A stretch of DNA of 64,000 bases from an uncultured bacterium (GTDB lineage: Bacteria; Actinomycetota; Geothermincolia; Geothermincolales; Geothermincolaceae): the NCBI GenBank assembly GCA_963814495.1, contig CAWFDJ010000011.1:193809-257808 (forward strand). Direction: 5' to 3'. The translations under genes and the position numbers were made by a program. Of this stretch, positions 922 to 54,661 are shown piece after piece; within the stretch, counting starts at the first letter, position 1; each line of letters opens with the position of its first letter. The notes beneath the pieces are model-generated. The model was not told the origin of the DNA. It made no database searches and saw only the letters and a list, made by a program, of their open reading frames with translations.

Positions 922-1066
922 GGCCTCAGACCTCGACGCCATTTGCGGAGCTCCCTGCAACGATAGCCCGGCCCTCGAAGCCCGGAATCGAAGAGCTTCC
1001 CGGTAGAATCCGCAAGGCTCTGGGCTCGCCAGGCCTGGAAGGGGTCGGCTGACCTCGGGCGGCTCG

Positions 1067-2248: not shown

Positions 2249-2257
2249 GGGGGCCTC

Positions 2258-2710: not shown

Positions 2711-2726
2711 AACCCCGCGCTTCGCC

Positions 2727-4002: not shown

Positions 4003-4003
4003 A

Positions 4004-4465
4004 TCAGCTCGATGGTTGTTCCCGGCCCTCGCCCTCGAGGGACCGGATGAGCTCCAGCCGGCGCTGGTGCCGGCCGCCTTCGAAGGGGGTCTCCAGCCAG
4101 ACCCGCACTATCTCCAGGGCCAGGCCTTCCCCGATGACCCGCTCTCCCAGGCACAGGACGTTCAGGTCGTTGTGCAGCCGGCTGAAGCGGGCCGTGAAGA
4201 GGTCGTTGCAGGCGCCGGCGCGCACGCCCCGCACCTTGTTGGCGCAGACGGCCATGCCCACGCCGGTGGCGCAGACCAGGATGCCCCGTTCGCACTCCCC
4301 GTCCCGTACCGCCTCGGCCACCTGCCGGGCGAACTCGGGGTAGTCGCAGGAATCCGCGTTTCCGGTGCCCACGTCCAGGACCTCGTGGCCCTCCTCGAGG
4401 AGCCGGCCGGCGATGGCCGACTTGAGCCTCAGTCCAGCGTGGTCGGAGCCCAGCCCGATCTTCAT
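4004..4465 (-). CDS. rpiB: ribose-5-phosphate isomerase B
   Basis: [15 protein letters not shown] start and [23 protein letters not shown] active-site region. 4-nt overlap with the upstream gene. Confidence 0.9.
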
Positions 4466-5073
4466 CCCTGCACCTCCGGTCGTCCGAACAGCACCAGCAT
4501 CATCTCTTCCAGGTTGGCGGAGATATCCTCGGCTACCGTCAGGTAGGTCTCCAGGCTGCCGCCAATGGGGTCAATTATATCAGAGGACATGATCTCCGGC
4601 TCCCGCCCTTTCCCGCCCCGGCGCTCCCCGGCCAGCCAGGACTTGAGCAGCTGCAGCCGCGTATCCAGCTCGCCCTCGTCCTGCACGGCTTCCCCCCCCA
4701 ACCGTTCCAGCGCCGCCTCGCGGCGAGAGGACAGGTACTTGAGGGTGAAGGACTTCTCCAGGAGCTCCTCTCCCAGCCTTTCGATGGACAGGAGGTGCTC
4801 CCTGGCCATGGTGACGATGAGGCTCGCCCCCCGCGCCAGGCGCGCGTCCAGGGGCTGGGCGCGGTGGCGGCTCAGGTCGATGCCCCAGAGGTCCATGGTC
4901 TGCACGGCGGTCTCGGTGACGCGGTTGCCCTCGATGGCGATGGTGCCCGCCGACTCCACCTTTACCAGCGGGAACAGGAGGGGATAGCCCTTGACCAGCC
5001 GGTCCTCGAAGAGGGCCTCGGCCATGGGGCTGCGGCATATATTTCCCGTACAGACGAATAGAACACTTATCAT
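4462..5073 (-). CDS. low-molecular-weight protein phosphatase (YwlE-like Tyr/Arg phosphatase) with C-terminal extension
   Basis: CX5R P-loop in VLFVCTGNICRSPMAEALF. At 203 aa it is longer than the usual ~150 aa. Confidence 0.85.
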   Translation of the reverse strand: MISVLFVCTGNICRSPMAEALFEDRLVKGYPLLFPLVKVESAGTIAIEGNRVTETAVQTMDLWGIDLSRHRAQPLDARLARGASLIVTMAREHLLSIERLGEELLEKSFTLKYLSSRREAALERLGGEAVQDEGELDTRLQLLKSWLAGERRGGKGREPEIMSSDIIDPIGGSLETYLTVAEDISANLEEMMLVLFGRPEVQG

Positions 5074-12425: not shown

Positions 12426-12582
12426 ACCTCTTGCATAATTAATCCCCCAGTGGGGATAACATCAAATAGAGCGAGTAAACGAAAGCGGAACGGATGCCGA
12501 TGTAAAAGGCCTGAAGAGGAATTGACGACAACATATGGTATATAATCTTAAAGCAAATTAACCGGACTGGAGGTTGGTAAAA

Positions 12583-38203: not shown

Positions 38204-40264
38204 ATGAGACACTTTATTTCCGGCAGGGCATCCGCGGGTATCGCTTTCGCAGCAGTGTTGATCGTCGCTCTATCCTTACTCCCGTACGTCCCGGCGGCGC
38301 TGGCGCAGCCGGTTGAGGGCCCCGCCGCCCCCGGCGGGCTGCGCGTCCTCGACCGTCCCGAGGACGCCGGGAAGCGCATCGGCCTCACCTGGGAAGCCGA
38401 CCCCGTCGACTACGCTTACCAGGTCTACCGCTCCGAGGCGCCGGAAGGCCCGTACGAGGTGGTGGGGGGCAAGGCCTCCGACTCCATGCTGGACTACCCG
38501 GTATTCATGGACGACACGGCGGCGGCCGGGGTCACTTATTATTACAAGGTCACGTCCATCGACGACTACTGGCTGGAGGGGCCGGCCTGCGAACCGGTGA
38601 GCGCGGTGCTCCAGGCGGGGTTCAACGCGGCGACGGGGGCCAAGAGCATCCTCATCTCCATCACCGACCAGAAGGTCTACTACTACGAGGGCAACCAGCT
38701 CATCAACATCCTGCGCTGCTCCACCGGGGCCAGGCCGGGCTCCACCCCCACCGGCAACTTCCGCATCCTCAATCACATCCGTGTCAACGTCGGGTGCGAC
38801 TACTGGTTGAGCTTCACCGCCGGCCACGGCATGCACGGCTGGCCCAGGAACATCCCCCGCTACGAGGAGGGCCTGGGGGCCCCGGCTTCCCACGGCTGCG
38901 TGCGCGTCCACCCGCTGGAGGCCTACTGGCCTTACGGCTGGGCCCCGGACGGCACCCCCATCCACATCACCTACGCCTCCTACGCCCGGCGGGTGGTCAA
39001 CGGGTGCTCCAGCACCATCGGGTCCACCCAGCTGTCCAACGACTGGTACTTCGCCGAGGGCTGCACCGCCGACACCTTCGACACCTGGCTGCTGCTGGCC
39101 AACCCCGGGAGCGCCGACGCCTCCGTGCACGTCGATTTCCTGCTGGAGGGAGGCGCCGCGGTGCCGCAGGACTACTTCGTCGCCGCCCACACCCGTTTCT
39201 CCCTGCCGGTGGACGACCTGCCCGGGCTGGAGCAGGTCTCCTGCTCGATGAACGTCCATTCCTCCCAGCCCATCGTGGCCGAGCGGGCCATGTACTTCAT
39301 CTTCGACAACAGCAAGTCCGACGGCTCGGTGACCACGGGCGCCGTCGCGCCCTCCAGCGACTGGTACTTCGCCGAGGGCTACTGCGCCGGCGACTTCGAC
39401 AGCTACCTGCTGCTGGCCAACCCCGGGAACACCGCCGTCACCGCCCAGCTGGACTTCCTGCTGGAGGGCGGGGCGACGGTGCACCAGGAATACCCGGTGG
39501 CCCCCCGATCCCGTTTCTCCGTGCCGGTGGACGGCATCCCCGGCATGGAGGAGGCCGCCTTCTCCACCCACGTGCACGCCTCGGGTCCCATCGTGGCCGA
39601 GCGGGCCATGTACTTCCGCAAGGGTTACGTGGACGGGGGGCACGTGTCCATGGGGGCGACCCAGCCCTCATCCCAGTGGTACTTCGCCGAGGGCTGCACC
39701 CGTGATTTCTACGAGAGCTACATCCTCATCGGGAACGAGGGGGCGCAGGACGCCACGGTGGACATCGACTTCTTCCTGGGCGACGGGAGCATCCGCTACA
39801 CCTTCGCGGTGGCGGCGCGCTCGCGCGTGACCGTGCCCATCCAGGCGCTGCCCTATCTCGACTACCAGGACATGGCCTTCACCCTGTATTCCAACGTCCC
39901 GGTGGTGGCGGAGCGGGCCCAGTACTACGCCCTGGACAGCCACCGCGGCGGGCAGGCCACCATGGGCTCCCCGCAGTCCTCAACCACCTGGTACTTCGCG
40001 GAGGGGTACACCGGCGACGCCTTCGACACCTGGCTGCTGCTCTCCAACCCCGGGAGCGCCACGGCCTCGATGATCGTCAGCTTCGCGCGGGAGGACGGGG
40101 CCGTCCTGGACTACTTCTTCACCGTCGACCCCCTGCGCCGGGTATCCGTCCACGTGGACGGACTGGCGGGGCTGGAGGAGGCCTCCTTCTCCATGACGGT
40201 GGGGGCGGACAGCCCGGTGGTGGCGGAGCGGGCCATGTATTTCGTCATCCCCCGCGGCTACTAG
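38204..40264 (+). CDS. secreted L,D-transpeptidase (YkuD) with FN3-like domain and four C-terminal ~95-aa WYFAEG repeats
   Basis: Signal peptide. FN3-like GLRVLDRPEDAGKRIGLTWEADPVDYAYQVYRSEAPEGPYEVV. YkuD core ILISITDQKVYYYEGN...GAPASHGCVRVH. Then four repeats of WYFAEG[CY]..(D)F(D).[WY]LLL.NPG...............R......VAERAMYF. Confidence 0.8.
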   Translation: MRHFISGRASAGIAFAAVLIVALSLLPYVPAALAQPVEGPAAPGGLRVLDRPEDAGKRIGLTWEADPVDYAYQVYRSEAPEGPYEVVGGKASDSMLDYPVFMDDTAAAGVTYYYKVTSIDDYWLEGPACEPVSAVLQAGFNAATGAKSILISITDQKVYYYEGNQLINILRCSTGARPGSTPTGNFRILNHIRVNVGCDYWLSFTAGHGMHGWPRNIPRYEEGLGAPASHGCVRVHPLEAYWPYGWAPDGTPIHITYASYARRVVNGCSSTIGSTQLSNDWYFAEGCTADTFDTWLLLANPGSADASVHVDFLLEGGAAVPQDYFVAAHTRFSLPVDDLPGLEQVSCSMNVHSSQPIVAERAMYFIFDNSKSDGSVTTGAVAPSSDWYFAEGYCAGDFDSYLLLANPGNTAVTAQLDFLLEGGATVHQEYPVAPRSRFSVPVDGIPGMEEAAFSTHVHASGPIVAERAMYFRKGYVDGGHVSMGATQPSSQWYFAEGCTRDFYESYILIGNEGAQDATVDIDFFLGDGSIRYTFAVAARSRVTVPIQALPYLDYQDMAFTLYSNVPVVAERAQYYALDSHRGGQATMGSPQSSTTWYFAEGYTGDAFDTWLLLSNPGSATASMIVSFAREDGAVLDYFFTVDPLRRVSVHVDGLAGLEEASFSMTVGADSPVVAERAMYFVIPRGY

Positions 40265-40317: not shown

Positions 40318-42145
40318 CTAGTCCCTTGGTATCTGTAATGGTTTTGACCTGTGGAGCATAAGCCAATCCCCGTTTTCACAGAGTGCCTCTTCCCCTAGCT
40401 CTACGAGCAAATTATGCATTTCACTATGGCCTGTCGTTTCGCCTTTCTCATCATTAATCCTTGCGAACTCCGCTCTCGCCCTCTGGAACAATTGCTTCAT
40501 TTTCAAAAATTGTTTGCCCTGTTCTGCATATGCCAGCTTGTCGAGGTAGTTTGATATCGCAGCAGCGCTAGAAAAGCACATTGAGATGATGACCCCGGAG
40601 ATACCGACAATGGTTCCTCTGTGATCTTCAGTCTGCGGGATCAACATAATGACCATAAGGAAAGCAGCCATTATCGCTCCTGCCCCGGAAAGGGCGTTCT
40701 TTATATATGTAAGTCTTTTAAGCGATCTTTCAAGGACTACCGATTTCTTATCGAAATACTCGTATTGATCGTTTAACCAGTATTTCTCCACAGTTTCGAA
40801 CTTGGTCCGGCCACCTGGTCCTGTCGCTTTGAGAGGTTGAGTGTTCAAGGAGATCAGGCTCCAATTCCTACGAGCGATTCTGATCCACTCAATCTCTTGC
40901 CGGTGTTTTCTTTGATAATAGTCCTCTACCGGCTCGGAGAAGCCCAGCAATGACCAGAAGAAATGTACCCTCATAGCTTCAGCGAGGCATCGATAGTCCA
41001 GGTATTTGTCTTGAAAGTCGTTCTTCTTTGCGTATCTAATCGTAGCCCAGGCTAAACAGAAGAGCACCGGATATCCCATGAACATGTACCACTCTTTATA
41101 TACACCCAGCGCCAGCCACAGAAGGATGATTGAAATAATCGCCATAGAAGACGCAGCCAACAAGCAGTACTTGTATTTCCTTTGATACGACAGGGCTAAC
41201 ACGTCAGCCATTGCATAACGCTCCAGGTTCTCCAACTCGTCTTCCCCCAGATCGTTCCGCTCCCCTTCAGGCAGAAGGCAATCCTTGCTGCTCTCCAGAT
41301 CGCTGGATTTTACCTTGAGGGCTTCTGCCGCATCTTTATTGAAGTCGTCAATAGCTTTATAGATACTCGCGTATGCCTCCTTAACGCTCCCCCCACCCTC
41401 GTCGCTCTCTTCGATAGAATACAGCTCTTTTAAATCTATACAAATCCTCCGCAATATTGATATCGCTGGCTCTTCGGACCAGCAAGTGAAAAACCAGGCC
41501 TGTTTGGGCTTGGTCTAAACGACTGTGGTGAGAATACTTATCTGGAACTCCTTTGAGCTTGAACTTCACTACATTTGAAGTGCTCCCTGTTACATCTTTC
41601 TCCGTTCCATCCCAAAGAGCGATCAGTACTTGACAGTTCGCTGCAACAAATGCGCCGACTTGCTCATATTGTTTATCGCGATTCACGCCCGGGTCCCTGA
41701 TGTCGTTAGGAGTGCTGCCCTCCACCAAGGGCAATGTGACAATCTTGATCGCTGAAGCTAACAGCTTTTCGTATTCCTGTAGCGAGTATTGATCGGTAAA
41801 ATCCTTCTTATATTCCTCTGACTCCATAGGCAGCGGGACGAATAATTTCGCTCCGAGAACCTCTTCCGCCACCTCTGCGACAATCCTGTCAGCTCCTTCG
41901 GCAAGCGGTGATATTAAGATAAACAATGCTGACGGGAAACGCTGCTTGACTTCGACAAGTTTAATCATCAGCTCTCGCCTGATAACCTCCTCGTCTTCTT
42001 TTTCAAGATCACGATGTCCCGTTACTCCCAATACGAATGGTATCCGGACAATATCATCGGCCGGCCTTTTCATCTGCTGCTTCTCCCCCCAGTCCTTCGC
42101 CGATATCGGCCTTTGCTGAACCAAGTGTATGTGCCCGTCCTTCAT
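40318..42145 (-). CDS. SLOG-like Rossmannoid domain fused to a 4-TM (2 x 2TM, SLATT/DUF4231-like) membrane module; one apparent 1-nt insertion at about 41440-41475
   Basis: N-part (track ORF 41381..42145): VLGVTGHRDL, ISPLAEGADRIVAEVA, VLIALWDG. C-part (track ORF 40318..41454) has TM pairs YCLLAASSMAIISIILLWLALGV / MFMGYPVLFCLAWATI and GAGAIMAAFLMVIMLIP / IVGISGVIISMCFSSAAAI. The two ORFs overlap by 74 nt in adjacent frames, and the combined length is 3n+1. Confidence 0.55.
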
Positions 42146-42353
42146 TGGCGTTCATACCAGGGCACTGCTATCAGATACTAATGTTCCTACCAAATCCGTT
42201 TCAAGGCAAGCTCGGCAGGGAGGGGGCAGGGCAAGCCCCGCGTTACCAGGCTTAAGCCCGATCAATAGAGAAGCAGGGGTTACTTTGCCTTGCTGTATAA
42301 TGTTGGCAAGGAAGGGGCATAGGGAAAGCGTTCGATCAAGAGGGCGCTAGCCG

Positions 42354-45302
42354 ATGCCAGAACATGGAAAGGGGCGCGAAGTGAGGATCTATCTTTCCTC
42401 CACTTACGAGGACTTGAAGGAATATCGGGAAGCTGCCGCTAAGGCCATCCGCGGGTTGAAGCACGAGTGCGTGGGCATGGAAGACTACCGGGCCAGCCCG
42501 GATTACCCCGTTGATTACTGTTTAAGGGACGTGGCCTCCTGCCAGGCCTACGTCGGGATAATCGGGATGCGCTACGGTTTCGTCCCCACGGGATACGACA
42601 GGAGCATCACCGAACTGGAGTACCGCAAAGCCCGGGAGATGAATGTCACTGCTTTATTGTTCCTGGCAGACCCCAAGGCGGATGGGCTTGAAGGGGCGGG
42701 CGAGCATGACCCGCGTCTGGACGCCCTGCGCTCCGAGGTCTCCGAGGCCCACATCTGCGGTTTCTTCACCACCCCGGAGAATCTCCGCGCCCTGGTGGCC
42801 GAGTCCCTGGGCAATATATCCGGGGATGGCATTACTGAAAGGCCCATCGTAGGCACCTGCCCGAGTGCCGCGGATATGTTCAAGGACCGCGAAGAGAAAT
42901 CGGAGGAGTTGGAGACCTTTCTCAAGGACCCCAGGGCCAAGCTCGTGTGCATCGTCGGACGCCCCGGCATGGGCAAGACCGCCCTGCTGGCCAAGGCCTG
43001 CCGTAAGATCGAGAACGGCGAGCTCAACCTGGTCCAGCTCAAACGGGAGATAGGGGCTGACGGCATAGCTTACATCTACTGCAAGGGCAGCAGGGTAACC
43101 CTCGAGTACGTCTTCGGGGAAATCGGGGAGCTCCTGGAGAAGAAGGGTCGGGCCAAGCGGGAAGAGGTCATGGACCTGTACAACCGTCCGGGAGAGAGCG
43201 TGCGCTCGAAGACCGCCAAGCTCCTGAACTACCTGCAGGGAGACTGTTACCTGCTGGTCTTCGACAACCTGGAATCCCTGCTCAACGAGGACTCTGCCAT
43301 CGCCGACGACCAACTGCGCCAGTTCTTCGAGAGCTGCGTGGAACTGAGCAGCCCGTTAAAGATCCTGGCCACCAGCCGGGAGGAAGTATTCCTGGAAAGC
43401 GGTCTTCATATCATCGAGCTGGAAGAAGGACTGCCGCTGGCTGACGCCGTGGACTTCCTGCGCGACCTCGACCCTCAAGGTAGGCTGCGCTTACGCGATG
43501 CCGACCGGGACGTGCTGGAGCGTATTGCCGAAGCCTGCCGCTGTGTTCCCCTGGCCCTTGAAGAAGGTCTCCGGCCTGATGGCGGAAAAGGGCAAGCTCA
43601 AGCTGGAGGACCTGCTCGAGAAGAGGAAGGACCTCTTCGACGAAAAGGTGGCTGAAAAGCTGGTCAAGGAGGTCTATGACAACCTGGGTGCGGATCAGCA
43701 GTCGGCCATGCAGGCGCTGGCCGTCTACAACTATCCCGTCCCGGAGGAAGCGGTGGCCGCTCTCTATCCATCCCTGGCCGATGCCGAAGACGTGCTCGAT
43801 TCCCTGGCCAAGTGTTTCTCGGTCACCTACCGGGATGACCACGATACCTATGAGCTCCACCCGCTGGACCATCATTACGCCTATGCCCAAATCCCTGAGG
43901 AAGGGGAGAACGGCCGCAGGGAGCTGGACCGGAGAGCAGCGGGATGGTGGCTGAGCAGATCGGCGGAGGTGGAATCCTCTCAGGGCTCAGAGTTGATAGA
44001 GGACTGGGCTCTCGATGCCTTGAACCGCTGGGCCGACTACGTCGGCAGAGCGACATGGCACCTGATGAACGCGGAGGCATGGCAGGACCTGGTGGGCAAT
44101 CACGCGAGGGAGCAGAAGTATTACGTTAGGAAGTTCAACTGGGGTTATATCACTGAATGCCGGCAACTGGCCCCGAAGATGATCGAAGCCGCCCGTATAG
44201 TGAGGATCAAAACTGCACGAGGGAGAATGGCTGCACGAATGGGCGGTCCTCAACAATGACCTGGGGAACTACGAGCAGGCTGAAAAGGAGGCCCTGCTGG
44301 GCCTGGAGATCGCCGAAGGGCTTGGGGAACTCGATCTGAAGGCACGGCTGCTCCACCGTCTCGGGATGATCAGCCGGGATGAGGTCGACTTCCCCCGGGC
44401 ACTCGAGTACTACGAGAAGAGCCTCGAGGTCAGGAGGGAGATGCAGGCACTCGGGGACGACGGCAAGGCCCAGGCCAAGTACAAGTCAATGAACACCTAT
44501 ATCTTTTCTCTGACATAGCTCCATAGGGGAGCTGGTCGAGGCGCGGGGCGACCTCGATAAGGCCCTTGCGATGCAGCGGGAATGCCTCGAAGGGGCCAGG
44601 AACGAACGCGATTACGAGGGAGAAGTATATTTCGGCTACCGCCTGGCCCGGGTGTTATAGAAAGCAGGGCATGTATGAGGAATCCCTCAGACACATGAAG
44701 GAGAGCATCGAGATCTCCAGGGAGCGCAACTACGCCAGTTTCCTGGCAAGGGCGCTTGGCGAGGCGGCTATGATCCATATCGGGCGGGGCGAATATGATA
44801 GCGGCGGCTGCCTCCGTCGAGGAGGGGCTGGAGTACGCGGACGGAATGGGCCGCGCGTTAGAGAAAGCCAGGTGCCTGAATGTCTCCGGGCGCATCGCGG
44901 CCCACAACGGCAGACTGGGAGGACGCTAAAGCCGCCTACTCGAGCGCGCTGGGGCTGGGCATAAAGGATTGCTCGTATAAGTCCGCGGCTAAGCTGGGGC
45001 AGTTGTATCTGAGGGCCGGGGGTCCCGAGATTGCCGAGGAGTACTTCTCAGAGAGCTGCCGTTTGAGCCGCGAGTTGCTCGAGAGGTCACCTGAGATCTA
45101 CGAGGCTCTGTTCTATCTTGGGCTGGCCGAGCTCGGCCTGGGCAAAGCGGAGGACGCTGAGAGGCATTACCTTGAGGCCTTGGGCATGTGCTCCGCTCCG
45201 GGCGTAAAGAGTGAGGTCATCAGCGATATCGATGACTTTGAGTGCTCGGACTCCAGACAGGCGGGCATCGAGAGGGTACGGGCCCTGATCTGCGGGGACT
45301 GA
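42354..45302 (+). pseudogene. STAND NTPase: DUF4062-like N-terminal domain + NB-ARC-type P-loop + TPR array; six apparent 1-nt insertions (about 43560, 44215, 44510, 44655, 44800, 44915)
   Basis: IYLSSTYEDLKEYREAAAKAI...ITELEYRKAREMNVTALLFL (DUF4062-like). Walker A GRPGMGKTALLAKA, Walker B YLLVFDNLESLL, and CRCVPLAL | KKVSGLMAEKG (GxPLAL-like). TPR-like units include LNNDLGNYEQAEKEALLGLEIAE, ALEYYEKSLEVRRE and YRKQGMYEESLRHMKESIEISRE. The frames cycle 0-1-2-0-1-2-0 and the span is divisible by 3. Confidence 0.7.
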
Positions 45303-45392
45303 GAACGACGGGGGGCGTAGCGACCTTTTCATGGCCGGGGATACGAAAAAAGATGAATGGACAGGAAAGGGAGGGGGTAAGAAACCCCGACG

Positions 45393-46752
45393 CTACGGGG
45401 TATACCCTACCACATCGTGGCCACCGGTCCAGACTCCATTGTAGTTGAAATACATGGGCCTCTCGACCACGATGGGGACATCGGAATCTACCTTGATAGA
45501 GACGTTCTTGTTCGGCCCGACCACATCGTTCACCCTGATCGTTGCCCTGGTGGAGGCCCCCACGTTCACTTCCTGGCTCTTGGCAGGTCCGTTGTTGAAC
45601 ATGTAGGTGATGTGGACATTGGCTGCCGCATCACCTGGATTCATCATACAGAGATACTCATCGAAAGTATCGGTTCCGGTGTAGCCTTCCGCGAAGTAGA
45701 AGGTGGCCTGCGGGGCAGTGGCCCCGATGACGTCATGGCCTCCTGTCCAGGTTCCCTGGTAGTTGAAGTACATTGGGCGCTCAGCAACTATGGGGGTATC
45801 CGATGCTATATACACGGACACTTCACGGTCATCCCCTACCTGATCATTGACCATGACCGATGCCCGAGAGGTGGCCCCGATATTAACATCCTGCTTCTGG
45901 GTAGTGCCGTCGGCGAACATATAGGTAATATGGGCAATGGTGTCATTATCGCTGGGGTTCATCATGCATAGCCATTCATCGAAAGTACCGGCTCCCGTAT
46001 AGCCTTCGGCGAAGTAGAATGAGGAACTGGGAGCGGTAGCCCCGATGACGTCATGACCTCCCGTCCATCGGCCGTTGTAATTGAAATACATGGGCCTCTC
46101 CGCAACAATGGGATCATCGGACGTTATCAATACGGAAACATCTCGGTTCAGGCCGACCTGGTCGTTGACCTTCACCGTAGAGCGGGAAGTGGCGTCGATG
46201 GATACGCTCTGCTTCTGAGCTGAACCGTCCGAGAACATGTAAGTGATATGAGCGGTGGTCGAGTATATATTGGGGTTCATCAGGCACAACCATTCATCAA
46301 AGGCTTCCTGACCCGTGTATCCTTCGGCGAAGTAGAAGGTCTTCTGGGGAGAGGTGGCCCCAACGACGTCATGCCCTCCTGTCCAGGAATCGTTGTAGTT
46401 GAAATACATAGGACGTTCCACCACGATCCGGGAATCCGAAGTTATCTTCACTGACACGTTCATATACGGCCTTACCTGGGCGTTGACATTCACCGTAGAG
46501 CGAGAGGTGGCACCGATGGCAATGCCCTGTACCTTTCATGGAACCATCCGAGTACATGTAGGTGATATAAGCGACTGCCAAGGAGTCCTGAGGATTCATC
46601 AGGCACAGGTACTCGGTGAAGGAGTTCTGGCTTGTATACCCTTCGGCGAAGTAGACGTTGCAGGCATCTTTTTCGTGAAGAGACAGTGATGTGGTTATGG
46701 CCAGTAAAGCTATCAGCAGGGTTGCCCCTATTGCCCAATTTGCCCGTATCAT
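45393..46752 (-). CDS. secreted protein made of four ~110-aa [FV]YFAEGYT repeats, one apparent 1-nt insertion at about 46534
   Basis: Signal/anchor MIRANWAIGATLLIALLAITTSLSL. The repeats are VYFAEGYTSQNSFTEYLCLMNP..., then FYFAEGYTG..FDE[WY]LC[LM]MNP...............TSR..V.VND.VG......V.I.SD.PIV.ERPMYFNY...WTGGHDV.G.T three times. Track ORFs 46369..46752 and 45393..46493 join as YSDGSMK | VQGIAIGATSRSTVNV. Confidence 0.7.
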
Positions 46753-46904
46753 TGATTACTCGTATACTCCTCATATGAAAACATTCGCTCTTTCTTGCAC
46801 CGCTATTCTACCATGACTACGGCAGCCATCCGCGCCTCGCGCGTTTGTCTTGCGGCATCGGACTTCTTTACGCCTCCCCTTATAAAATCATTTCTTGACC
46901 TCTA

Positions 46905-47549
46905 TTGGGAGCGGTGATCTTCTTTGAGAATAGCCGGCTGGCCTGTGGGATATTGAATCTTGGTCCCGGTACTCGTCTCGGACTGTGGCTGCAGGGCTGT
47001 CAGAGACAATGCCCGGGGTGCATGGCAGCAAGCTTCTCCGACCCCACTGGTGGCAGCTACCTCGCTCCGCTCGACGCTGCCAGGTCCATAATCTCGAAAG
47101 CCGACGGGCATATCGGGCTCACCATATCCGGCGGGGAACCTTTTGAACAAGCGGAAGAACTCAACTCGATGCTCGACTATATCGCTGAACACAGCGGGCT
47201 CGACGTGCTCTGTTATTCAGGATATACGATCGAGGATATCCGGAGCGGCACCAATCACATGGTTGAACTGCTCACGAGACTTGATATACTGATTGATGGG
47301 CCATTTCTCGAAGAAGAGCCGACCGATCTGATATGGAGAGGATCGGCGAATCAGGGAATGCATATCCTGTCCGAGCGAGCGGATGGCTACAGGTACTTCG
47401 TGGATATGACGGCGGAGGGAGCGAGGCGACTCCACATATCTATAGACCCCGATGGCAGTGTCAACATCATCGGGATACCGGCGAGGGGGGAACTCCTGCG
47501 GTTGAAAGACGAGCTTGCGGCCAGGGGAATAGATATCCATCAAGAGTAA
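46905..47549 (+). CDS. NrdG-like radical-SAM activating enzyme (anaerobic RNR activase family) with extra ~55-aa C-terminal domain
   Basis: GPGTRLGLWLQGCQRQCPGC (CX3CX2C), LTISGGEPF, DILIDGPF and DLIWRGSANQ closely parallel E. coli NrdG motifs as I recall them. No nrdD or other glycyl-radical enzyme is in the window. Confidence 0.8.
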   Translation: MGAVIFFENSRLACGILNLGPGTRLGLWLQGCQRQCPGCMAASFSDPTGGSYLAPLDAARSIISKADGHIGLTISGGEPFEQAEELNSMLDYIAEHSGLDVLCYSGYTIEDIRSGTNHMVELLTRLDILIDGPFLEEEPTDLIWRGSANQGMHILSERADGYRYFVDMTAEGARRLHISIDPDGSVNIIGIPARGELLRLKDELAARGIDIHQE

Positions 47550-47565
47550 CGCAGAGTGAGGAGCC

Positions 47566-48219
47566 ATGGGCAGGGTTAAGATATGCCCGAATTGCGGGCA
47601 CGAAAACGCTCTTCGTGAATTGACCTGTATTAATTGCCGCTTCAGCCTGGTGGCTGTGGAATTCAGGGAATCCGGCAGAGGGGAGGAGGCGCCTGTTGCG
47701 ATACCGGCGGAGACGCCTCCCTTGCCAATACCGCAAATGGAAGTCCTGTCGAAAAAGGTCAAGGTCTGTCCTTCCTGTGAACGAGACAACGACGAATTCG
47801 CCACATTCTGCGTGGGCTGCAAGCTCAATCTGATGCACGTTCAGGCAACTTCTCGTTCAACCGAACTCGTCAACGAGCCTGTAGCCGTCAGCGCAACCGT
47901 TTGCCCTGCCAGTTCTGGCCATATTGCCCGGCTTGAATGCACTACCTGCAGCGGGTTTATCCGCAAAGTGCATCCGGGTCAGACAGCCGGCCGTCAAGGC
48001 GAAGTCGACCTGAGCCCTCTTCCAGGAAGTGGATACATCTCGCGCCGGCACGCCCGTTTCGATATCGACGATAAGGGAAGGTGGATGCTGGTGAACCTCA
48101 CGGATACGACCTACACCTACGTCAACTCGAAAAAAATACAGCCGGAAGAGCAGCGCGTCATCGAGGATGGTGACCATATCGTTCTAGGAAACACCGAATT
48201 CATTTTCAGGACCAGGTAG
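47566..48219 (+). CDS. double zinc-ribbon + FHA domain protein
   Basis: GAGGAG before the ATG. CPNCGHENALRELTCINC and CPSCERDNDEFATFCVGC ribbons. FHA core GRQGEVDLS...YISRRHARFDIDDKGRWMLVNL...IEDGDHIVLGNTEFIF. Confidence 0.8.
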   Translation: MGRVKICPNCGHENALRELTCINCRFSLVAVEFRESGRGEEAPVAIPAETPPLPIPQMEVLSKKVKVCPSCERDNDEFATFCVGCKLNLMHVQATSRSTELVNEPVAVSATVCPASSGHIARLECTTCSGFIRKVHPGQTAGRQGEVDLSPLPGSGYISRRHARFDIDDKGRWMLVNLTDTTYTYVNSKKIQPEEQRVIEDGDHIVLGNTEFIFRTR

Positions 48220-48232
48220 AGGGAGTGCCACG

Positions 48233-49018
48233 GTGTTGCATATTTACGCAATGAGCGACAAGGGCCAGGTCCGGCAGGAGAACGAGGACTGCTTCTTGGC
48301 CGCTGGCCTCATAGACAAGCGTTTCATGGAGATGGGAATCTCCGAGAACGGCCTCTTTTTCAACGGCTATGGCCTGCTGTGTGCGGTGGCAGACGGGATG
48401 GGAGGTCATGCCGGAGGATCCCTGGCAAGCAGGCTTGCCCTGGAATCGCTGGCCTTGGAATCCTACTGCCTCCAGGCCTCCCTCGAGCCGCAAGAAATCG
48501 CATCACATCTTTCCGACACCTTGAAGCGTACCCACAAGATGATCAATGAACGTGGGAATCGCGAAGCCGGTTTTAAGGGAATGGGCACCACTATAGTCGG
48601 CCTCTTTCTTTCAGGCAGGCAATGCATATCCTTCCACGTAGGTGACAGCCGGCTCTATCGTTTTCGGGGAGAAGGGTTGGTCCAACTCACCACCGATCAC
48701 TCCATGGAAAATGCAAACATCCTCAATGCTCCCGGGCAGGAGATTCAGGGAAAGAGCGGTGCAATATACAACACGCTCGGAGGAGGCTCAGACCTCGAAT
48801 GTTATCCCGAGATCAACGAAGTGGGTGTTGCTGCCGGTGACGTACTGATGCTGTGCTCCGACGGCTTATCGGATATGTTGGATATCAACTCGATTGAACG
48901 TGCACTTCGCGAAAGGTCTTCCCTTCAGAATGCCGCCGTCGGGTTGATCTCAATGGCCAACCAGGCCGGCGGCCTGGACAATATCACCGTCATGTTGATT
49001 GAAAGGATCCCGGAATGA
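48233..49018 (+). CDS. PP2C-family Ser/Thr protein phosphatase
   Basis: DKGQVRQENEDCF, AVADGMGGHAGG, GMGTTIVG, HVGDSRLY, LCSDGLSDM, GGLDNITVMLIE. Confidence 0.9.
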   Translation: MLHIYAMSDKGQVRQENEDCFLAAGLIDKRFMEMGISENGLFFNGYGLLCAVADGMGGHAGGSLASRLALESLALESYCLQASLEPQEIASHLSDTLKRTHKMINERGNREAGFKGMGTTIVGLFLSGRQCISFHVGDSRLYRFRGEGLVQLTTDHSMENANILNAPGQEIQGKSGAIYNTLGGGSDLECYPEINEVGVAAGDVLMLCSDGLSDMLDINSIERALRERSSLQNAAVGLISMANQAGGLDNITVMLIERIPE

Positions 49019-51360
49019 CCTCCTGCCCCACCTGCGGCAGGGCCTGCGAGGAAGACGAAAATTTCTGCAGTAACTGCGCCGCTCCCCTGCGCGGAAGGGA
49101 ACTGCCGGGAGACAGGGGAAAAGAAACCCGTAGGCCCGATTCAGCTGAGACCATCCGCCCCTCCAGGGGCGCGCTCGAGACGCTGTCGGAGGACTTACTG
49201 GCTGGGCAGGTAGGCCTGATTGACAATCGCTATGAGGTAACCGAGGAGTTCCCTCAGCGGGGAGGGGAAGCGGACGTCTACCATTGCCGGGACCGGGAAG
49301 GCGGAGAAGAGGTAGCGGTCAAGCTCTACCGGGTCAAGGTGGAGCCCAAGCAGGCAGTACTGGACCAGCTCGTGGGCCTTTCCCACAAGGATATCGTCTC
49401 GCTCAAGGCCTACGGGACCTGGGGGGGACGCTTCTACGAGGTGATGGAGTGGGCGTGTGGCGGCAGCCTGGATAGTCATGCCCCCTTCTCGGAGGACTTC
49501 ATCGTCTCTATCGTACTGCCCCAGGCCTACAACGCCTTGTGCTTTCTGCACGAACGAAATATCATCCACCGCGACATGAAGCCCAACAACCTCTTCTTCA
49601 GGGACGGGGAGAAAAAGGACGTGGTCCTAGGCGATTTCGGGGTGTCCTCACTGGTCAAAGGCCAGAACAGCGTACACCAGTCCCGAGGCTTCGGAGGTAC
49701 GGGTACCTATGCCGCACCCGAAGCCTACAGCGGTATCTTCAACTACAAGACCGACTACTACAGCCTGGGAATAACCACCATGTACCTACTCACCGGGAGC
49801 ACCCCCTTCGACGGCATGAACCCGCAGCAGATCATGTATACCAAAGGTCAGGAGCCGGTGGAGCCACCGGCCAAGGCCTCTAAACGCCTGCGGGCCCTGA
49901 TGCGGGGCCTCACCCTGCGCAGCGTGGATAATCGCTGGGGGAAGAGCGAGGTCCGGCGCTGGCTGGCAGGCGAGGATGTCCCGGTCGAAGAGGACGATAC
50001 CCCCGCGTCACGTGACTTCTTCTACAAGCTTGCCGAAGGGCGGGAAGCCAATTCTCCCCAGGTCCTGGGCCGCCTGCTCTACGAGGACCGTGATACGGCC
50101 ATGCAGCACTACCAAGCCAAGATGTTGGTGGACGGGATCAAACCCTACGACCAGGCCCTGGCCCTGCGCTTCCAGAACATCACCAACTGCAGTAAGAACA
50201 ACGAGGCCGCCCTGGCCGAAATCATCTACATCCTGGACCCCACCCTGCCCTACCGCCTGGGGACGGGCTGGGAAGCAGCGGGCCCCGCGGAGCTGGCCGC
50301 CCTCATCGATTCGTCCCCGGAAACCTGGGAGCAAGGCAAGCGGCACCTGCAGAGCGAGCAGTTCGAGGCCTGGCTGAGGGCTACCGGCAGGACGGAGACG
50401 CTGGCAGCCTGCCAGGAGTTGCGAAGCGGGGCCGGGGGCAACGCGGATCTGTACCTGGAGGCCTTCCTGCACCTGCTCGATCCCTCTCTCGCCGCGCCCC
50501 GCCTGGAGGCCTCGCCCTTACGGTTGAGCATCAAGGGGATACGGCCGGGTAAGAGAGAGAGCCGGGAGGTAAAGGTGCTGAATGCCACCCGCGGATACCT
50601 GCTAGCCTCGGCCGCCCTGTACCCCCCTGCCATCGGTCTGGAAGTCTCTCCCGAGACCCTGTCTCTCCACACCCTATCCGAGGCGAAGGGCACCCTCGAC
50701 GTAACCGCCGACACATCCCAGGCCCTTAACGGGAAGTCCACCCTTCAGATAGAGTCCAGCGCCGGGGCTGCCCATATACAGGTATCCTTCTCCTCCATCT
50801 TCTCCTACCCCCTGCTTTACCCGTGGATCGGGCTGGTGGCCGGAGGCCTCGCCTACCTGCTCATCATCGTGCTCACCAGCGGGAGCAGCAGCATCCCGCT
50901 GACTCCCAGAAAGGGTTGGTTTGAAATCGTCTTTAACTACATGGGAGCCGGTCCTTTCGAAGAGCCTTTTACAGATAACCTGAGGACGTTTCTCGCGTTG
51001 CCCGCGTATGCCGCATTTCTCGTACTTTTCTACCTCGATGAACGGTGCAGAAACGTACTTAACGCTGTTCCCGGGTTCTTCGGAGACCTATCTGTGATAC
51101 TCAGCATGTTTCTATACGCGATCCTCTACCTCGTTCCATCCGTTGTGCTTCTCTTCTTCTGCTGGCTCCTGGGCGGACCCCTCGCGTTCACTCTTGCCCT
51201 CTTCTGCTATCTCGGATATCGCATCGGTAGCTGGATACGAAAGAGATCAGGGTTTCCTGATACGGAGGACCTGCGCAGGCAAGACCACGTTTTCGGCATC
51301 ATCTTTCCGGTTATCCTGGCCTGCCTTTTCTGCCTGAATATCTATCTTGCATTTAACTGA
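49015..51360 (+). CDS. zinc-ribbon + Hanks-type Ser/Thr protein kinase + middle domain + C-terminal polytopic membrane region
   Basis: ATGA overlap with the PP2C gene. CPTCGRACEEDENFCSNC. Kinase motifs VAVKLYR, IIHRDMKPNNLFF, LGDFGVSS and GTGTYAAPE are all intact. The last ~200 aa contain at least 4-5 hydrophobic helices. Confidence 0.9.
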   Translation: MTSCPTCGRACEEDENFCSNCAAPLRGRELPGDRGKETRRPDSAETIRPSRGALETLSEDLLAGQVGLIDNRYEVTEEFPQRGGEADVYHCRDREGGEEVAVKLYRVKVEPKQAVLDQLVGLSHKDIVSLKAYGTWGGRFYEVMEWACGGSLDSHAPFSEDFIVSIVLPQAYNALCFLHERNIIHRDMKPNNLFFRDGEKKDVVLGDFGVSSLVKGQNSVHQSRGFGGTGTYAAPEAYSGIFNYKTDYYSLGITTMYLLTGSTPFDGMNPQQIMYTKGQEPVEPPAKASKRLRALMRGLTLRSVDNRWGKSEVRRWLAGEDVPVEEDDTPASRDFFYKLAEGREANSPQVLGRLLYEDRDTAMQHYQAKMLVDGIKPYDQALALRFQNITNCSKNNEAALAEIIYILDPTLPYRLGTGWEAAGPAELAALIDSSPETWEQGKRHLQSEQFEAWLRATGRTETLAACQELRSGAGGNADLYLEAFLHLLDPSLAAPRLEASPLRLSIKGIRPGKRESREVKVLNATRGYLLASAALYPPAIGLEVSPETLSLHTLSEAKGTLDVTADTSQALNGKSTLQIESSAGAAHIQVSFSSIFSYPLLYPWIGLVAGGLAYLLIIVLTSGSSSIPLTPRKGWFEIVFNYMGAGPFEEPFTDNLRTFLALPAYAAFLVLFYLDERCRNVLNAVPGFFGDLSVILSMFLYAILYLVPSVVLLFFCWLLGGPLAFTLALFCYLGYRIGSWIRKRSGFPDTEDLRRQDHVFGIIFPVILACLFCLNIYLAFN

Positions 51361-51380
51361 GAGCTTGGGGGGATTAGGTC

Positions 51381-52568
51381 ATGAGCCACTCGAATTATTC
51401 CAGCTACAGGGTCAGGGTCTCCGTGGAAAGCGCCAGGCAGCGGAAAAGACGGCTCGAAAACGAGCGGAAACAGGCCGAGGAGCGGCAGAAGCGCGAAGCG
51501 GAGGAACGGCGTAAGCTTCAACTCGAAGAAGCTCGCAAGGGCGCTGAAGTGATGGAGAAAGCCAAAGAACTTGCGTCAAGACTCAGGGAAGCCGAAACAG
51601 CTGAACGTGACAGTACCCACGAGGAAGCCGCCTCAGCGAATAAGTCTTCAACTGCGAAGGACGATGATAGAAAGAAGCTGATGAAAGTGGAAGTCGCTGA
51701 CATCCGGGAAACAATAAGTGAGCTTCCCGAAGTCCTCAGTGCGTCATTCAAAGGTGAGCTGCTGAAGATAGAGGAATGCCTCGATAAAGTGGTTAAAAGC
51801 GGCTTCGACCCCTTTTTCCTGAACAGCTTGGAGTGGGCCAGGCGTAATACCCTGTCCCTGGTAGATCAGGCCACGGAAAAGATGCAGACCATGGAGCTCC
51901 TGTCCCGGGAGGATTATGAACTCATTGACGACATGGTGGCAGGAATGACTGCCGTTCTTACAGATCCCGTTCTTCCGGATATCGAAGCGGAAGCCAGGGC
52001 GATCATCACCAGGATCAGGGAGATTGAAGCGCGTGACGTCATGACGCAAGGGCTTGACGAACTGGGCGTGCTGCATGAAAGATACAAAGCACTGCTTGCC
52101 AGGCACATGGAAGTAATGGACAGGGATTCGGAGCGGGAATTCGTTGAAGACAATATAAAGGATATCCTGCAAGGTATGGGCTATGAAGTGCTTACAATGC
52201 AAAATAACCCAGCACTTGAGAAGGATCTCGCAGGGGGCTATTACCTTACCCCGGATGGAGAGGCCGTCAGGTTGAGTATGGGGCTTGACCGGGCATTTCA
52301 CCTGGAACTCCTGCGCCTGGAGGGGGAAGGAAACGAAGGCGCCGGATCCACTGACGACGAGATGACCTCAAAGAGCAGACGATTCTGCGGAGATTACGAC
52401 CTGCTGCTGGAACGCTTGCGCGAAAGGAACATAGAGATAGATGAGGCATGGAGGGTCCCTCCGGAAAAGGCGGAATTCGATACCTGCGTCGTAAGAGACC
52501 TTGAGGAAATTGACCGCCGTAGTATCGCCCAGGCCGAGCGCGAACATCTTAGAAGGGAGTTGGAATGA
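51381..52568 (+). CDS. hypothetical protein: K/R/E-rich coiled-coil N-terminus + unknown alpha/beta C-terminal part
   Basis: 395 aa with no motif I can assign. N-terminus RQRKRRLENERKQAEERQKREAEERRKLQLEEARK. Stop overlaps the AAA+ start (ATGA). Confidence 0.6.
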   Translation: MSHSNYSSYRVRVSVESARQRKRRLENERKQAEERQKREAEERRKLQLEEARKGAEVMEKAKELASRLREAETAERDSTHEEAASANKSSTAKDDDRKKLMKVEVADIRETISELPEVLSASFKGELLKIEECLDKVVKSGFDPFFLNSLEWARRNTLSLVDQATEKMQTMELLSREDYELIDDMVAGMTAVLTDPVLPDIEAEARAIITRIREIEARDVMTQGLDELGVLHERYKALLARHMEVMDRDSEREFVEDNIKDILQGMGYEVLTMQNNPALEKDLAGGYYLTPDGEAVRLSMGLDRAFHLELLRLEGEGNEGAGSTDDEMTSKSRRFCGDYDLLLERLRERNIEIDEAWRVPPEKAEFDTCVVRDLEEIDRRSIAQAEREHLRRELE

Positions 52569-54661
52569 ACGGTGGTGGAAGCCCGCAACCTCGATGGGTC
52601 AGGGAGATACAACGCTACCTCCAGATAAAGTCACTCTTCATCGTATACGGTAACATCTACGACCAGCTCTCCTACATGGAGAAAGACGAAGACGGGCCCC
52701 ATTGGTCATATTGGCCGTTGGATGAGTTGCTCCACAGTTTGCTGCATAAAGAAGGCTACGAGATAGTCCTCTTCTATGATATCGTCGATGGCGTGCGGTT
52801 TCTTACGAAGAAAGAGGAAGAGGACTTCCATACCATCCTGCAGTCAGACGGCCGCCCGCCGTCGGCTGTGACGTCACAACAGGATACCGCCGGGGACGAG
52901 AGCAGCAGTGACGCATCAGATCCTTCAGGTACAAGCGATGGCAGGGGGACCAGGACGAACCTGCGCAATCTCGATGCAGCAATGGGGGCTGTAAGAACAT
53001 TGCTGAGGAACCAGAGACTTCCCTTTGCTGCCGTGTTCGGCTTCTCCTCCCGCCTCCTTACAAGCCCCACTCTCCTTGATGCCCGTGAAAGGTCCCAGTT
53101 CGTGCGCATTTTCAAATCGGCCAGGGATTCAGCCTGGGCAAGAAGAGAAAAACCCCAGGGGGACGCCCTTCCCCTTTTGAGGAACAGTATCTTCCTGGTC
53201 TGCGACAAACCTAATGACCTGCCCTTCTGGCTCTATTTCGACAATCCCATAGCGCAGATCATCGAGGTGGACCTGCCCACTCGCTCCGAAAGGGCCCGTT
53301 TCTTCGAGTTGATGGCAAGAGGCTTCTACCACCCCGAAGGTGCGGATGGGGCTTACACCAAAGAGGAGATAGATAAGTTCGTGGACCTGACGCACGGGTT
53401 CAAGCACTTCGAGCTGGAAGGGCTGCGTATGCTCTCCAACCGGGCCAGGGAGAGCGATCCGAACAGCATCGTTCAGATGTACAAGTTCGGGGAGACCGTG
53501 AATCCCTGGGACGAACTGGGGCACGAAAAGATGTCCAAGGCCGAGGAATCCTTGCGATACAGGGTCAAAGGCCAGGATGCCGGGATAAGGGCAGTGGCGG
53601 ACATCCTGAAGCGTTCCGCTGTTGGCCTGACCGGGTCCAGTCCGGGTTCCGCTCATCACCGGCCGAGGGGAATCCTCTTCTTTGCCGGGCCTACCGGGGT
53701 AGGAAAGACCGAGCTGGCCAAAGCACTGGCGTCCTTCCTTTCGGAAACGATGAGGCTTGCAGGCGTTTTGACATGAGTGAATACAATATGGAACATGCGG
53801 ATCAACGCCTTCTAGGAGCACCCCCCGGTTATGTCGGCTACGAAGAGGGCGGCCAGTTGACCAATGAGGTCAAGCGCAATCCCTTTTCGGTGCTACTGTT
53901 CGACGAGATAGAGAAGGCCCACCCCAAGATCCTGGACAAGTTCCTCCAGATCCTTGACGATGGTCGCTTGACTGACGGCAGGGGGGACACCGTCTATTTC
54001 AGCGATTGCGTGATCATCTTCACCAGCAACCTCGGTTTCTACCGCGACATCCCCCTGCCCGACGGGCGAACAGCGAGGGTCCCCAACGTTCTCCCCTACT
54101 GCTGGAAGTGTAAGAGCTGCGAAGTCTGTGTGATTGAAGAGATACGTTCCCGAACACTGCAGTTGCGGGAGTAATGAGCTTGAAAAGGTCGAGACCCCTT
54201 ACCCCCTGGTGAAGAAGAGGATAATGGAGGCTATCGAGGAATACTTCAAGTTCACCCTGGGAAGGCCCGAGATATATAACCGCATGGGCAATAATTTCGT
54301 GGTCTTCGACTACATCCGGCCTGCAATAATCGGAGAGATACTAGACAAGCAACTGGTTGGATTGGCGGAAGAGGTGCTTGAACTCAAGAACATCGAACTG
54401 GTCATTCGAGATCAAGTCAGAAGCTCCCTGCTCGAGAGAGCAAGCGCCAACCTGGACATGGGCGGGAGGGGAGTCCGGAACCAGGTTGAGACGTCATTGT
54501 TGAACACGCTGGCGAGAGTCATCTACGATGAACAGATAACAGACTGCACGCTGGTCATTGAGGGCATAGAAGAAGTGTCCGAGGGGGGCAGCACCTGGTA
54601 CCGGCTAAAATGGAGCAAGACCGAAGGTGATCCTGTCGAGCCAATACCCGATAAGCAATAG
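52565..54661 (+). CDS. AAA+ ATPase with ClpA/ClpB D2-type module, degenerate N-terminal domain and Cys-rich insert; two apparent indels (1-nt deletion at about 53740, 1-nt insertion at about 54134-54150)
   Basis: [21 protein letters not shown] | [99 protein letters not shown] matches the Hsp100 D2 consensus. The insert is [11 protein letters not shown]...[10 protein letters not shown]. The N-terminal ~330 aa ([12 protein letters not shown]...) lack a Walker A. Confidence 0.8.

Follow-up and report, generated by a model that had tools for sequence, protein, structure and literature searches.

A six-gene set that combines a phosphothreonine switch, an Hsp100-type AAA+ protein and a radical-SAM protein recurs across bacterial phyla

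We analyzed a 64,000-nucleotide stretch of DNA, which we call the window, from an uncultured bacterium of the Geothermincolaceae (Actinomycetota; positions 193,809 to 257,808 of contig CAWFDJ010000011.1, assembly GCA_963814495.1). The window contains an operon of six genes. They encode, in order, a radical S-adenosylmethionine protein (rSAM), a protein with an FHA domain, a PP2C phosphatase, a serine/threonine kinase (STK), a protein without an annotated family (UNK), and an AAA+ protein. The operon is part of an island with a low G+C content at third codon positions (GC3). All coordinates are positions in the window, protein lengths and positions are in amino acids (aa), and the features are as follows.

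46905-47549, + strand: rSAM gene, 214 aa, Fer4_12 (7e-30, Pfam)
47566-48219, + strand: FHA gene, with a double zinc ribbon at aa 7-85 (DZR, 3e-7) and an FHA domain at aa 142-208 (2e-12)
48233-49018, + strand: PP2C gene, 261 aa, PP2C_2 (1.4e-15)
49015-51360, + strand: STK gene, 781 aa, with an N-terminal Zn_ribbon and a Pkinase domain (1e-31) at about aa 60-330
51381-52568, + strand: UNK gene, 395 aa, no Pfam family
52565-54661, + strand: AAA+ gene, AAA_2 (6e-33) and ClpB_D2-small (1e-8)
52565-53569, + strand: N-terminal region of the AAA+ protein, a predicted degenerate D1-like AAA module
53570-54661, + strand: D2 module and D2-small domain of the AAA+ protein, ClpB type
54100-54166, + strand: CxxC...CxC zinc-ribbon-like insert of the AAA+ protein, from the alignment and from reading the sequence
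40318-54661, strand not assigned: low-GC3 island that carries the operon

The preliminary description of this DNA, which was made by reading the sequence, considered the six genes to be one operon. We reproduced the coordinates, the shared strand, and the tight junctions: the intergenic gaps are 16, 13, and 20 nucleotides, and the other two junctions are ATGA start/stop overlaps at 49015 and 52565.

A profile built from the N-terminal region of the AAA+ protein identified relatives in 273 of the 185,579 species-level genomes that we scanned. The 80 loci that we fetched come from Clostridia, Bacilli, Nitrospirota, Hydrogenedentota, Desulfobacterota, Gammaproteobacteria, Zetaproteobacteria, Binatia, Verrucomicrobiota, and other groups. 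Partners were counted in the 34 loci that extend for at least 6.5 kb on both sides; a partner had to be on the same strand and within 9 kb, and it was recognized with locally built hidden Markov models (HMMs). In these 34 loci, the AAA+ gene was accompanied by rSAM in 29, STK in 28, FHA in 27, UNK in 26, and PP2C in 24, and all five partners were present in 19. The window's own proteins, which were among the seeds of these HMMs, scored 189 bits (rSAM), 94 bits (FHA), 254 bits (PP2C), 510 bits (STK), 259 bits (UNK), and 414 bits (N-terminal region of the AAA+ protein). The same partners were also found in the Pfam-annotated contexts of eight homologues, from Pelotomaculum, Niallia, Parageobacillus, and several metagenomes.

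So homologues of these genes do co-occur in unrelated genomes, across many phyla and in different gene orders. At least seven complete gene orders were found, and each is a cyclic permutation of either STK-UNK-FHA-rSAM-AAA-PP2C or UNK-AAA-rSAM-FHA-PP2C-STK. The order in the window belongs to the second of these two classes. Gene content that is kept while gene order is scrambled is a classic sign of functional linkage. The two classes also hint at rearrangement via circular or tandem intermediates.

Many loci have reduced forms of the gene set, namely UNK-AAA-rSAM, AAA-rSAM, or UNK-AAA. Some of these are on short contigs, and the missing genes may fall past the contig end. Because there are triads of UNK, AAA+, and rSAM without the phospho-switch, the switch seems to be dispensable for the family. 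It appears that UNK, AAA+, and rSAM are the core of the system and that the STK/PP2C/FHA switch is a common add-on.

The D2 module of the AAA+ protein has a Walker A motif (53687-53710), a Walker B motif (53902-53907), and a pore loop (GYVGYEEGG). In an alignment of the family, the Walker A and B motifs, sensor-1, the arginine finger, and the pore loop with its tyrosines are conserved. These motifs, together with the matches to AAA_2 (6e-33) and ClpB_D2-small (1e-8), bear out the earlier view that the protein resembles the D2 ring of ClpB. Indeed, D2 matches the ClpB model best, ahead of the models for ClpA, ClpK, and ClpV, but all of these matches are far below the cut-offs. Against the ClpB equivalog, the protein scores 259 bits and the cut-off is 1232 bits, so it is not ClpB itself.

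The preliminary description also called the protein a single-ring unfoldase of the Hsp100 type, and here we disagree. The N-terminal region of about 330 aa has no sequence match in Pfam, NCBIfam, or PDB. An AlphaFold2 model of this region has a mean predicted local distance difference test (pLDDT) of 78.7 and a predicted template modelling score of 0.69. In a Foldseek search, the model of the AAA+ protein superposes on two-ring chains of ClpA, ClpC, and ClpB over about 430 columns (E = 2e-6, probability 1.0). Given this match, we read the N-terminal region of the modelled protein as a D1-like AAA module. Its Walker A motif is replaced by an invariant GN(I/V)xD that lacks the lysine, and it has a disordered insert at about aa 95-135. 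The protein therefore has a dead D1 and a live D2. We found no match to Clp_N, and the protein does not have the class-1 Hsp100 architecture of Clp_N plus an ATP-binding D1 ring. The host does have a canonical two-ring ClpC at 12574-15063 (+ strand; two Clp_N domains, AAA, AAA_2, and D2-small). The AAA+ protein of the island is therefore an extra and specialized relative of Hsp100.

The zinc-ribbon-like insert that had been noticed in the AAA+ protein is present, but in the alignment it is confined to the subclade of the window's protein. It lies between sensor-1 (FTSNLG) and the arginine-finger motif (GRPExYNR). ClpA carries its IGL loop, which docks ClpP, between sensor-1 and the arginine finger. 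The insert's location at the same position suggests that it may be a docking site for a partner.

UNK is predicted to be a fast-evolving coiled-coil partner from an unannotated family. Word-indexed searches gave just three proteins each, probably owing to the charged low-complexity region, so we replaced them with an exhaustive profile search, which found relatives in 519 representative clusters at E <= 1e-3. The family has no match in Pfam, NCBIfam, PADLOC, or PHROGs; a Pfam scan of 40 members gave no family that matched consistently; a comparison of the UNK profile to PDB gave only coiled-coil noise; and Foldseek found no match to the fold in PDB or BFVD at E <= 1e-3. In the predicted structure, long helices extend to about aa 265, and they are followed by a C-terminal domain of four strands plus a helix that contains an MGY motif and Cys336 (codon at 52386-52388). 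The MGY motif and the cysteine are near-invariant (64 of 64 proteins from the fetched loci and 143 of 151 representatives). The start of the protein is also conserved: it is near-universally Met-Ser(-Gly). Of about 134 full-length representatives, 79 begin with MSG and about 40 with MS followed by another residue. In Firmicutes the N-terminus is MSGPK[YT], in Gram-negative lineages it is MSG[EH] followed by a hydrophobic stretch, and in the window it is MSHSNY. The remainder of the protein is about 15% identical across the family. In a metagenome-assembled genome from the Hydrogenedentales (locus L010, 5963-9727, - strand), three UNK paralogues lie in tandem upstream of AAA-rSAM-FHA-PP2C-STK and are oriented divergently from it. 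This suggests that UNK is diversifying.

The rSAM protein contains the cluster motif C32-x3-C36-x2-C39 (46998-47021), as well as GPGxR, SGGEP, and RGSxNQ, and it has a C-terminal extension of about 55 aa. It scores 89.3 bits against TIGR02491 (NrdG), which is under the cut-off of 126.1 bits. The single sequence has no match in PDB, and a family profile was needed to identify the best solved relative, the activating enzyme of PFL (3C8F/8FO0, 1e-13). On the strength of these sequence comparisons, we consider rSAM to be a true relative of NrdG and PflA, within the superfamily of activases of glycyl-radical enzymes (GREs). It had been described as an NrdG-like activase with no GRE in the window, and this holds for the open reading frames (ORFs) of the window that we scanned: NRDD, PFL-like, and Gly_radical are absent from these ORFs, from the partner proteins, and from nine annotated homologous contexts.

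If there is no recognizable GRE, then perhaps there is a cryptic one. The most plausible candidate would be UNK, as a new and minimal glycyl- or thiyl-radical protein that is activated by rSAM, opened or recycled by the AAA+ protein, and timed by the kinase. The rSAM protein does group with activases that act on proteins (NrdG and PflA are the best matches) rather than with rSAM enzymes that act on small molecules, and it has the RGSxNQ motif. In UNK, a Gly-Tyr pair and a Ser-Gly N-terminus are conserved, and one Cys is near-invariant. But none of the proteins of the operon matches the Gly_radical, NRDD, or PFL-like models. The glycyl-radical signature in PROSITE (PS00850) is RVxG[FYW], and the motifs of UNK do not fit it. 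The conserved residues of UNK are retained in loci that have no adjacent rSAM. Finally, some carriers of the gene set are aerobic Bacilli, and a glycyl radical would not survive in them. We take the Brevibacillus, Ureibacillus, Niallia, and Parageobacillus that carry it to be aerobic, and on that assumption a stable glycyl radical is unlikely to be the output of rSAM. Overall, we think that a cryptic glycyl-radical system is quite improbable. More plausible than a stable radical on glycine is a transient one, formed by H-abstraction, that ends in a cleavage or in a stable covalent modification.

Turning to the switch, the translations of the kinase (VAVK, HRDMKPNN, DFG, and APE), the phosphatase (DGMGGH, GDSR, SDG, and DN, so that the metal-binding Asp motifs are present), and the FHA protein (GR...SxxH...N) retain their motifs. 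This agrees with the proposal that the three proteins form a complete phosphothreonine switch, as far as it can be judged from the translations. The C-terminal part of the kinase has about five hydrophobic segments (aa 599-781, from hydropathy), so it is predicted to be membrane anchored; no PASTA domain was detected in it. The phosphatase matches Stp1_PP2C_phos at 4e-50, yet this is under the model's cut-off. Zinc ribbons recur in the operon, as had been noticed: DZR in the FHA protein, Zn_ribbon in the kinase, and the CxxC...CxC insert in the AAA+ protein.

The island that carries the operon is clearly foreign and was horizontally acquired. Its GC3 is 0.52-0.77 across 40318-54661, as compared to 0.9-0.98 in the flanking host genes, which confirms that it is richer in AT than its surroundings. 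The core-chromosome genes of the window include LysS, ClpC, CysS, RadA, GltX, and SHMT. Besides the operon, the island encodes a SLATT-like protein with four transmembrane segments, a 254-aa protein without a family, a DUF4062-STAND-TPR protein, and a DUF5719/ASRT repeat protein. The STAND NTPase that had been reported beside the operon is thus there, but its gene is fragmented: this DUF4062-NB-ARC/STAND-TPR gene (42354-45302, + strand) has at least three disruptions (frameshifts or a stop), which leave it in four or more ORFs. We could not reproduce the SLOG/2TM neighbor. The gene in question (40318-42145, - strand), which overlaps the 254-aa ORF, encodes a 378-aa product that has hydrophobic segments and weak, sub-threshold hits to SLATT_1 and SLATT_3, with no match in PADLOC. 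The DUF5719/ASRT-like gene (45393-46493, - strand) is built of three to four tandem repeats of 318 nucleotides, and it is related to the C-terminus of the host's YkuD-DUF5719 gene (38204-40264, + strand), which gives rise to the inverted repeats I1 and I2. Around the island we found no integrase, no convincing flanking direct repeats, and no att sites. The island has no Rfam elements, and scans for promoters and terminators gave results at chance level only.

The copy of the system in the window may not work. Two frameshifts that compensate for each other break the AAA+ gene into three ORFs. The first is a -1 shift in a run of T near 53738-53741, and the second is near 54125-54141, within the CxxC...CxC insert. 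By tblastn, the three pieces together span residues 3-676 of a homologue of 686 aa and show no further defect, and the 403-aa N-terminal ORF has over 4,000 relatives in the databases that are 620-700 aa long. The preliminary description had worried that the AAA+ or rSAM genes might be degraded: rSAM is intact, and AAA+ is interrupted in the available sequence. Within the island, damage is restricted to its two NTPase genes (STAND and AAA+), and the other five genes of the operon (5.66 kb) are intact. Breakage that is limited to these two genes looks more like real inactivation than like uniform assembly error. So the system is probably inactive in this genome, unless the frameshifts are assembly errors.

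The locus in the window could then be a decaying relic, that is, an island that was acquired and whose NTPase genes were later inactivated. This would be compatible with any function for the family. The two frameshifts in AAA+ and the three or more disruptions in the adjacent STAND gene fit with decay, as does the undamaged state of 5.66 kb of the same operon, which a uniform rate of assembly error would not explain. Also, the database copy of the AAA+ protein has the same 403-aa truncation. On the other hand, the two shifts are not accompanied by internal stops, the catalytic motifs are all intact, and the first shift is in a homopolymer run, as is typical for sequencing errors. We consider decay to be a serious possibility and stop just short of calling it the likely explanation.

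Related systems are found on plasmids. Nineteen plasmids carry the AAA+ gene, and 11 of these are typed as conjugative by PLSDB. On a plasmid of Aristaeella lactis (L093), the full six-gene set is next to a DUF4011 helicase on the same strand. This helicase (1-4625, cut at the start of the locus) matches the PADLOC models for PDC-S37 (1e-264) and Hhe (8e-111), and related large helicases adjoin the gene set in L003, L054, L055, L062, L063, and L069. DUF6273 proteins recur in L003 and L093. A different arrangement is shared by Moellerella plasmid pW18-2-a (L095, 1478-11431) and Acinetobacter plasmid pNDM1_010055 (L094, 1719-11438). Both have the same tight operon of five genes, for an MkoA-like superfamily 1 helicase (7e-102), a PIN_4 protein, a 381-aa protein, AAA+, and rSAM. 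This operon lacks the phospho-switch; on some plasmids, a Mokosh-type helicase and a PIN protein apparently take its place. The 381-aa protein resembles UNK only in its position, its size, and its MS..RYR N-terminus. On the NDM-1 plasmid, the five genes are followed by a thymidylate-kinase-like gene and by a Radical_SAM gene that is possibly viperin-like.

There are other variants as well. In some Clostridia (L075, 9983-15356, and also L083, L076, and L077), a variant of the AAA+ gene has none of the five partners and is followed instead by the gene for a conserved 287-aa protein. L075 and L083 additionally have MotA/ExbB-like and MotB/OmpA-like genes downstream, a combination that recalls Zorya. 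Between PP2C and STK, versions from Bacilli (L003, 12674-13711, and L085, 12658-13947) encode an extra protein of 345-429 aa. No Pfam family matches it, and the 429-aa copy was unrelated to UNK in our comparison. In L089 (2315-22022), the full system is directly downstream of terminase and portal genes and is followed by SLT, HNH, and TIR genes; the contig is classed as viral in IMG/VR (L091). The closest relatives of the window's system adjoin Tubulin_2/vWA, HerA-like, HD, and NYN genes.

With moderate confidence, we propose that these genes form an undescribed, horizontally mobile system whose most likely role is in biological conflict (against phages or plasmids) or in acute stress. The low-GC3 island beside a STAND NTPase, the carriage on plasmids, the helicase and PIN neighbors, and the phage-adjacent locus with a TIR gene all point toward conflict. 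So do the fast divergence of UNK and its tandem triplication in L010.

Several observations count against this proposal. We infer the role in conflict or defense from genomic context. The system is rare in viral data: only 2 of 2.9 million contigs in IMG/VR have it, and no phage in GenBank does. No candidate substrate for rSAM that bears a Gly_radical signature was found, and the N-terminal motif and the cysteine of UNK are kept even in loci without an adjacent rSAM. The AlphaFold2 model of UNK (pLDDT of 72) was built from only four sequences, which is a shallow alignment. For the 381-aa protein of the plasmids, hhalign against the UNK profile gave a probability of just 1.5%, and we treat it as no more than a positional analogue of UNK. 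We also asked whether the disordered insert in D1 might be the phospho-acceptor: its serine/threonine content does not track the presence of the kinase, and loci with and without a kinase did not differ significantly (p = 0.07). Finally, the loci of Parageobacillus and of some Proteobacteria are surrounded by housekeeping genes, such as dnaK/grpE/hrcA, fur, and spoIIM.

These housekeeping surroundings might instead indicate a chromosomal module for stress or proteostasis. The kinase would sense envelope, redox, or other stress, the FHA protein and the phosphatase would switch on the unfoldase, UNK would be its adaptor, and rSAM would repair or modify the client. This would make sense of a D2 ring that is closest to that of ClpB, a disaggregase, and triads of STK, PP2C, and FHA often regulate physiology. 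The lack of a match to any system in PADLOC also fits. However, a module of this kind would not be expected to be so sporadic (273 of about 185,000 species genomes, over many phyla), to be carried on plasmids and in a low-GC island, or to recur beside Hhe/PDC-S37-like helicases and in operons with an MkoA-like helicase and a PIN protein. Nor would one expect UNK to diverge quickly and to be tandemly duplicated, and the host already has a canonical ClpC. A stress module is possible, but we think it somewhat unlikely.

If a system for conflict is the correct reading, then it might work as follows. The membrane-anchored kinase would sense a cue and phosphorylate a component of the system. The FHA protein would read the phosphothreonine mark and license the assembly of UNK with the AAA+ hexamer, and PP2C would erase the mark and so reset the switch. 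The D2 ring would thread a polypeptide, which could be the N-terminal tail of UNK (as an adaptor or a pseudo-substrate) or a client that is brought by UNK. ClpA engages the N-terminal extension of ClpS, and the conserved extreme N-terminus of UNK is reminiscent of that extension. The rSAM protein, which is of the open-barrel type of the GRE activases, would perform radical chemistry on the exposed polypeptide. In some lineages, the Hhe/PDC-S37-like helicase or the MkoA-like helicase and PIN protein, which are operonic or adjacent and target nucleic acids, could be the effectors.

A bolder version of this idea is that UNK, AAA+, and rSAM make up a protein-directed radical machine. The unfoldase would thread a polypeptide (the Met-Ser-Gly tail of UNK, or a client from the invader or the host) to an rSAM protein that is docked on the ring, and a radical step at the backbone, gated by the switch or by the helicase and PIN protein, would serve immunity or suicide. 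We think that this is unlikely. If true, it would be the first AAA+ translocase that is coupled to a radical-SAM enzyme and the first homologue of a GRE activase outside of GRE metabolism.

If the system is functional, then an apparently undescribed system is widespread: at least 273 species genomes have it, as do conjugative plasmids and a plasmid with NDM-1. It would join three things that are not known to cooperate: a eukaryote-like phosphothreonine switch, an Hsp100-type unfoldase with a dead D1, and an orphan homologue of the GRE activases. Two protein families without annotation (UNK and the D1-like N-terminal part of the AAA+ protein) would be gained, and possibly a new reaction for the NrdG/PflA clade. 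It could be a test case for how Ser/Thr signaling gates bacterial conflict systems. And it would imply that "NrdG" and "ClpB" are misleading labels for such orphan genes. In RefSeq, the proteins have names such as "AAA family ATPase," "4Fe-4S single cluster domain-containing protein," and "hypothetical protein."

How does this gene set compare to systems that are already known? We ran PADLOC, NCBIfam, and PHROGs on all six proteins and their homologues. There is no model for UNK or for the D1-like region in PADLOC v2, NCBIfam (June 2026), Pfam, or PHROGs, and the matches were to generic domains only. We found no description of the combination in the searchable full-text literature (subscription-only papers were outside the search). 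A 2020 eLife paper on conflict systems (PMC7159879) mentions each of the domains but not the combined system. So the suspicion that this is not a described system has held up in PADLOC, NCBIfam, Pfam, and the full-text literature.

The closest resemblance in overall logic that the preliminary description offered was to the type VI secretion system (T6SS) with PpkA/PppA/Fha1 and ClpV. There too, an AAA+ protein of the Hsp100 family is encoded together with a Hanks-type kinase, a phosphatase of the PP2C type, and a reader with an FHA domain, and phosphothreonine provides reversible gating of an ATP-driven machine. In contrast to the T6SS, there are no T6SS structural genes at any locus that we examined. 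As had been stated, the operon is not accompanied by secretion-system genes: neither the nine annotated contexts nor the ORFs that we scanned in the window contain a T6SS Pfam family. Unlike ClpV, the AAA+ protein is without the Clp_N/ClpV N-domain, its D1 ring is dead, and it scores 198 bits against VI_ClpV1 (the cut-off is 885 bits). Furthermore, our gene set adds rSAM and UNK, and its core exists without the switch.

The operon might still be a fragment, or a chance juxtaposition, of T6SS, PknB/PstP/FhaA, or NrdDG systems. There is likeness at the level of domains (the matches to PknB_PASTA_kin, Stp1, NrdG, and ClpV), but all four matches are far below the curated cut-offs. We rejected the PknB/PstP/FhaA locus because the kinase scores 122 bits against PknB_PASTA_kin (the cut-off is 450) and has no PASTA domain, and because the neighbors are island genes. 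We rejected NrdDG because the NrdG score is under its cut-off and there is no NRDD or Gly_radical in the scanned ORFs of the window. More broadly, these ORFs and the nine contexts contain no T6SS, NrdD/PFL, PASTA, RodA, or PbpA, and the six families are found together again and again with their order changed. We find it hardly credible that the operon is a fragment of T6SS, PknB/PstP, or NrdDG.

The rSAM protein by itself resembles NrdG and PflA in its CX3CX2C cluster, its GGE motif for binding SAM, its C-terminal RGSxNQ motif, and its small size. It differs in its 55-aa extension, in its sub-cut-off score against NrdG, in having no NrdD, PFL, or Gly_radical nearby, and in being present in aerobes.

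The AAA+ protein shares a ClpB-D2-type AAA_2 core with DolB of the Dodola system, with PDC-M37B, and with human CLPB/Skd3. Skd3 has one active D2-type ring. The PADLOC matches to DolB (1e-22) and PDC-M37B (2e-29 to 3e-32) cover only the AAA core (profile positions 307-425 of 518). The N-terminal half of our protein differs from all three in that it is a putative pseudo-AAA D1 rather than ankyrin repeats or DUF6414. The partners DolA and PDC-M37A are absent, with rSAM and UNK in their place. Because the partner genes were not found and the B components aligned over the AAA core only, we rejected both Dodola and PDC-M37.

TerY-P (Gao_TerY) and type I Mokosh also have an STK, with or without a PP2C, in a mobile defense context. 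The operon has no vWA protein such as TerY, and no TerY-P models are among the PADLOC matches listed for the kinase (the best 25 of 34). The window has neither the helicase nor the PLD nuclease of Mokosh, and MkoA-like helicases are found only in the plasmid variants. UNK, AAA+, and rSAM are not part of either system. So we rejected identity with TerY-P and with Mokosh, as the defining components are missing (vWA from the operon, and helicase and PLD from the window). Mokosh is nevertheless similar in two ways: the MkoA-like helicase is operonic with AAA+ and rSAM on plasmids, and the kinase of the window matches the kinase part of MkoA (6.5e-27). Finally, the helicase of Hhe/PDC-S37 is a neighbor rather than one of the six genes, and neither the window nor most of the loci have it. 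Even so, a matching helicase adjoins the six-gene set in L093, and related helicases do so in six other loci.

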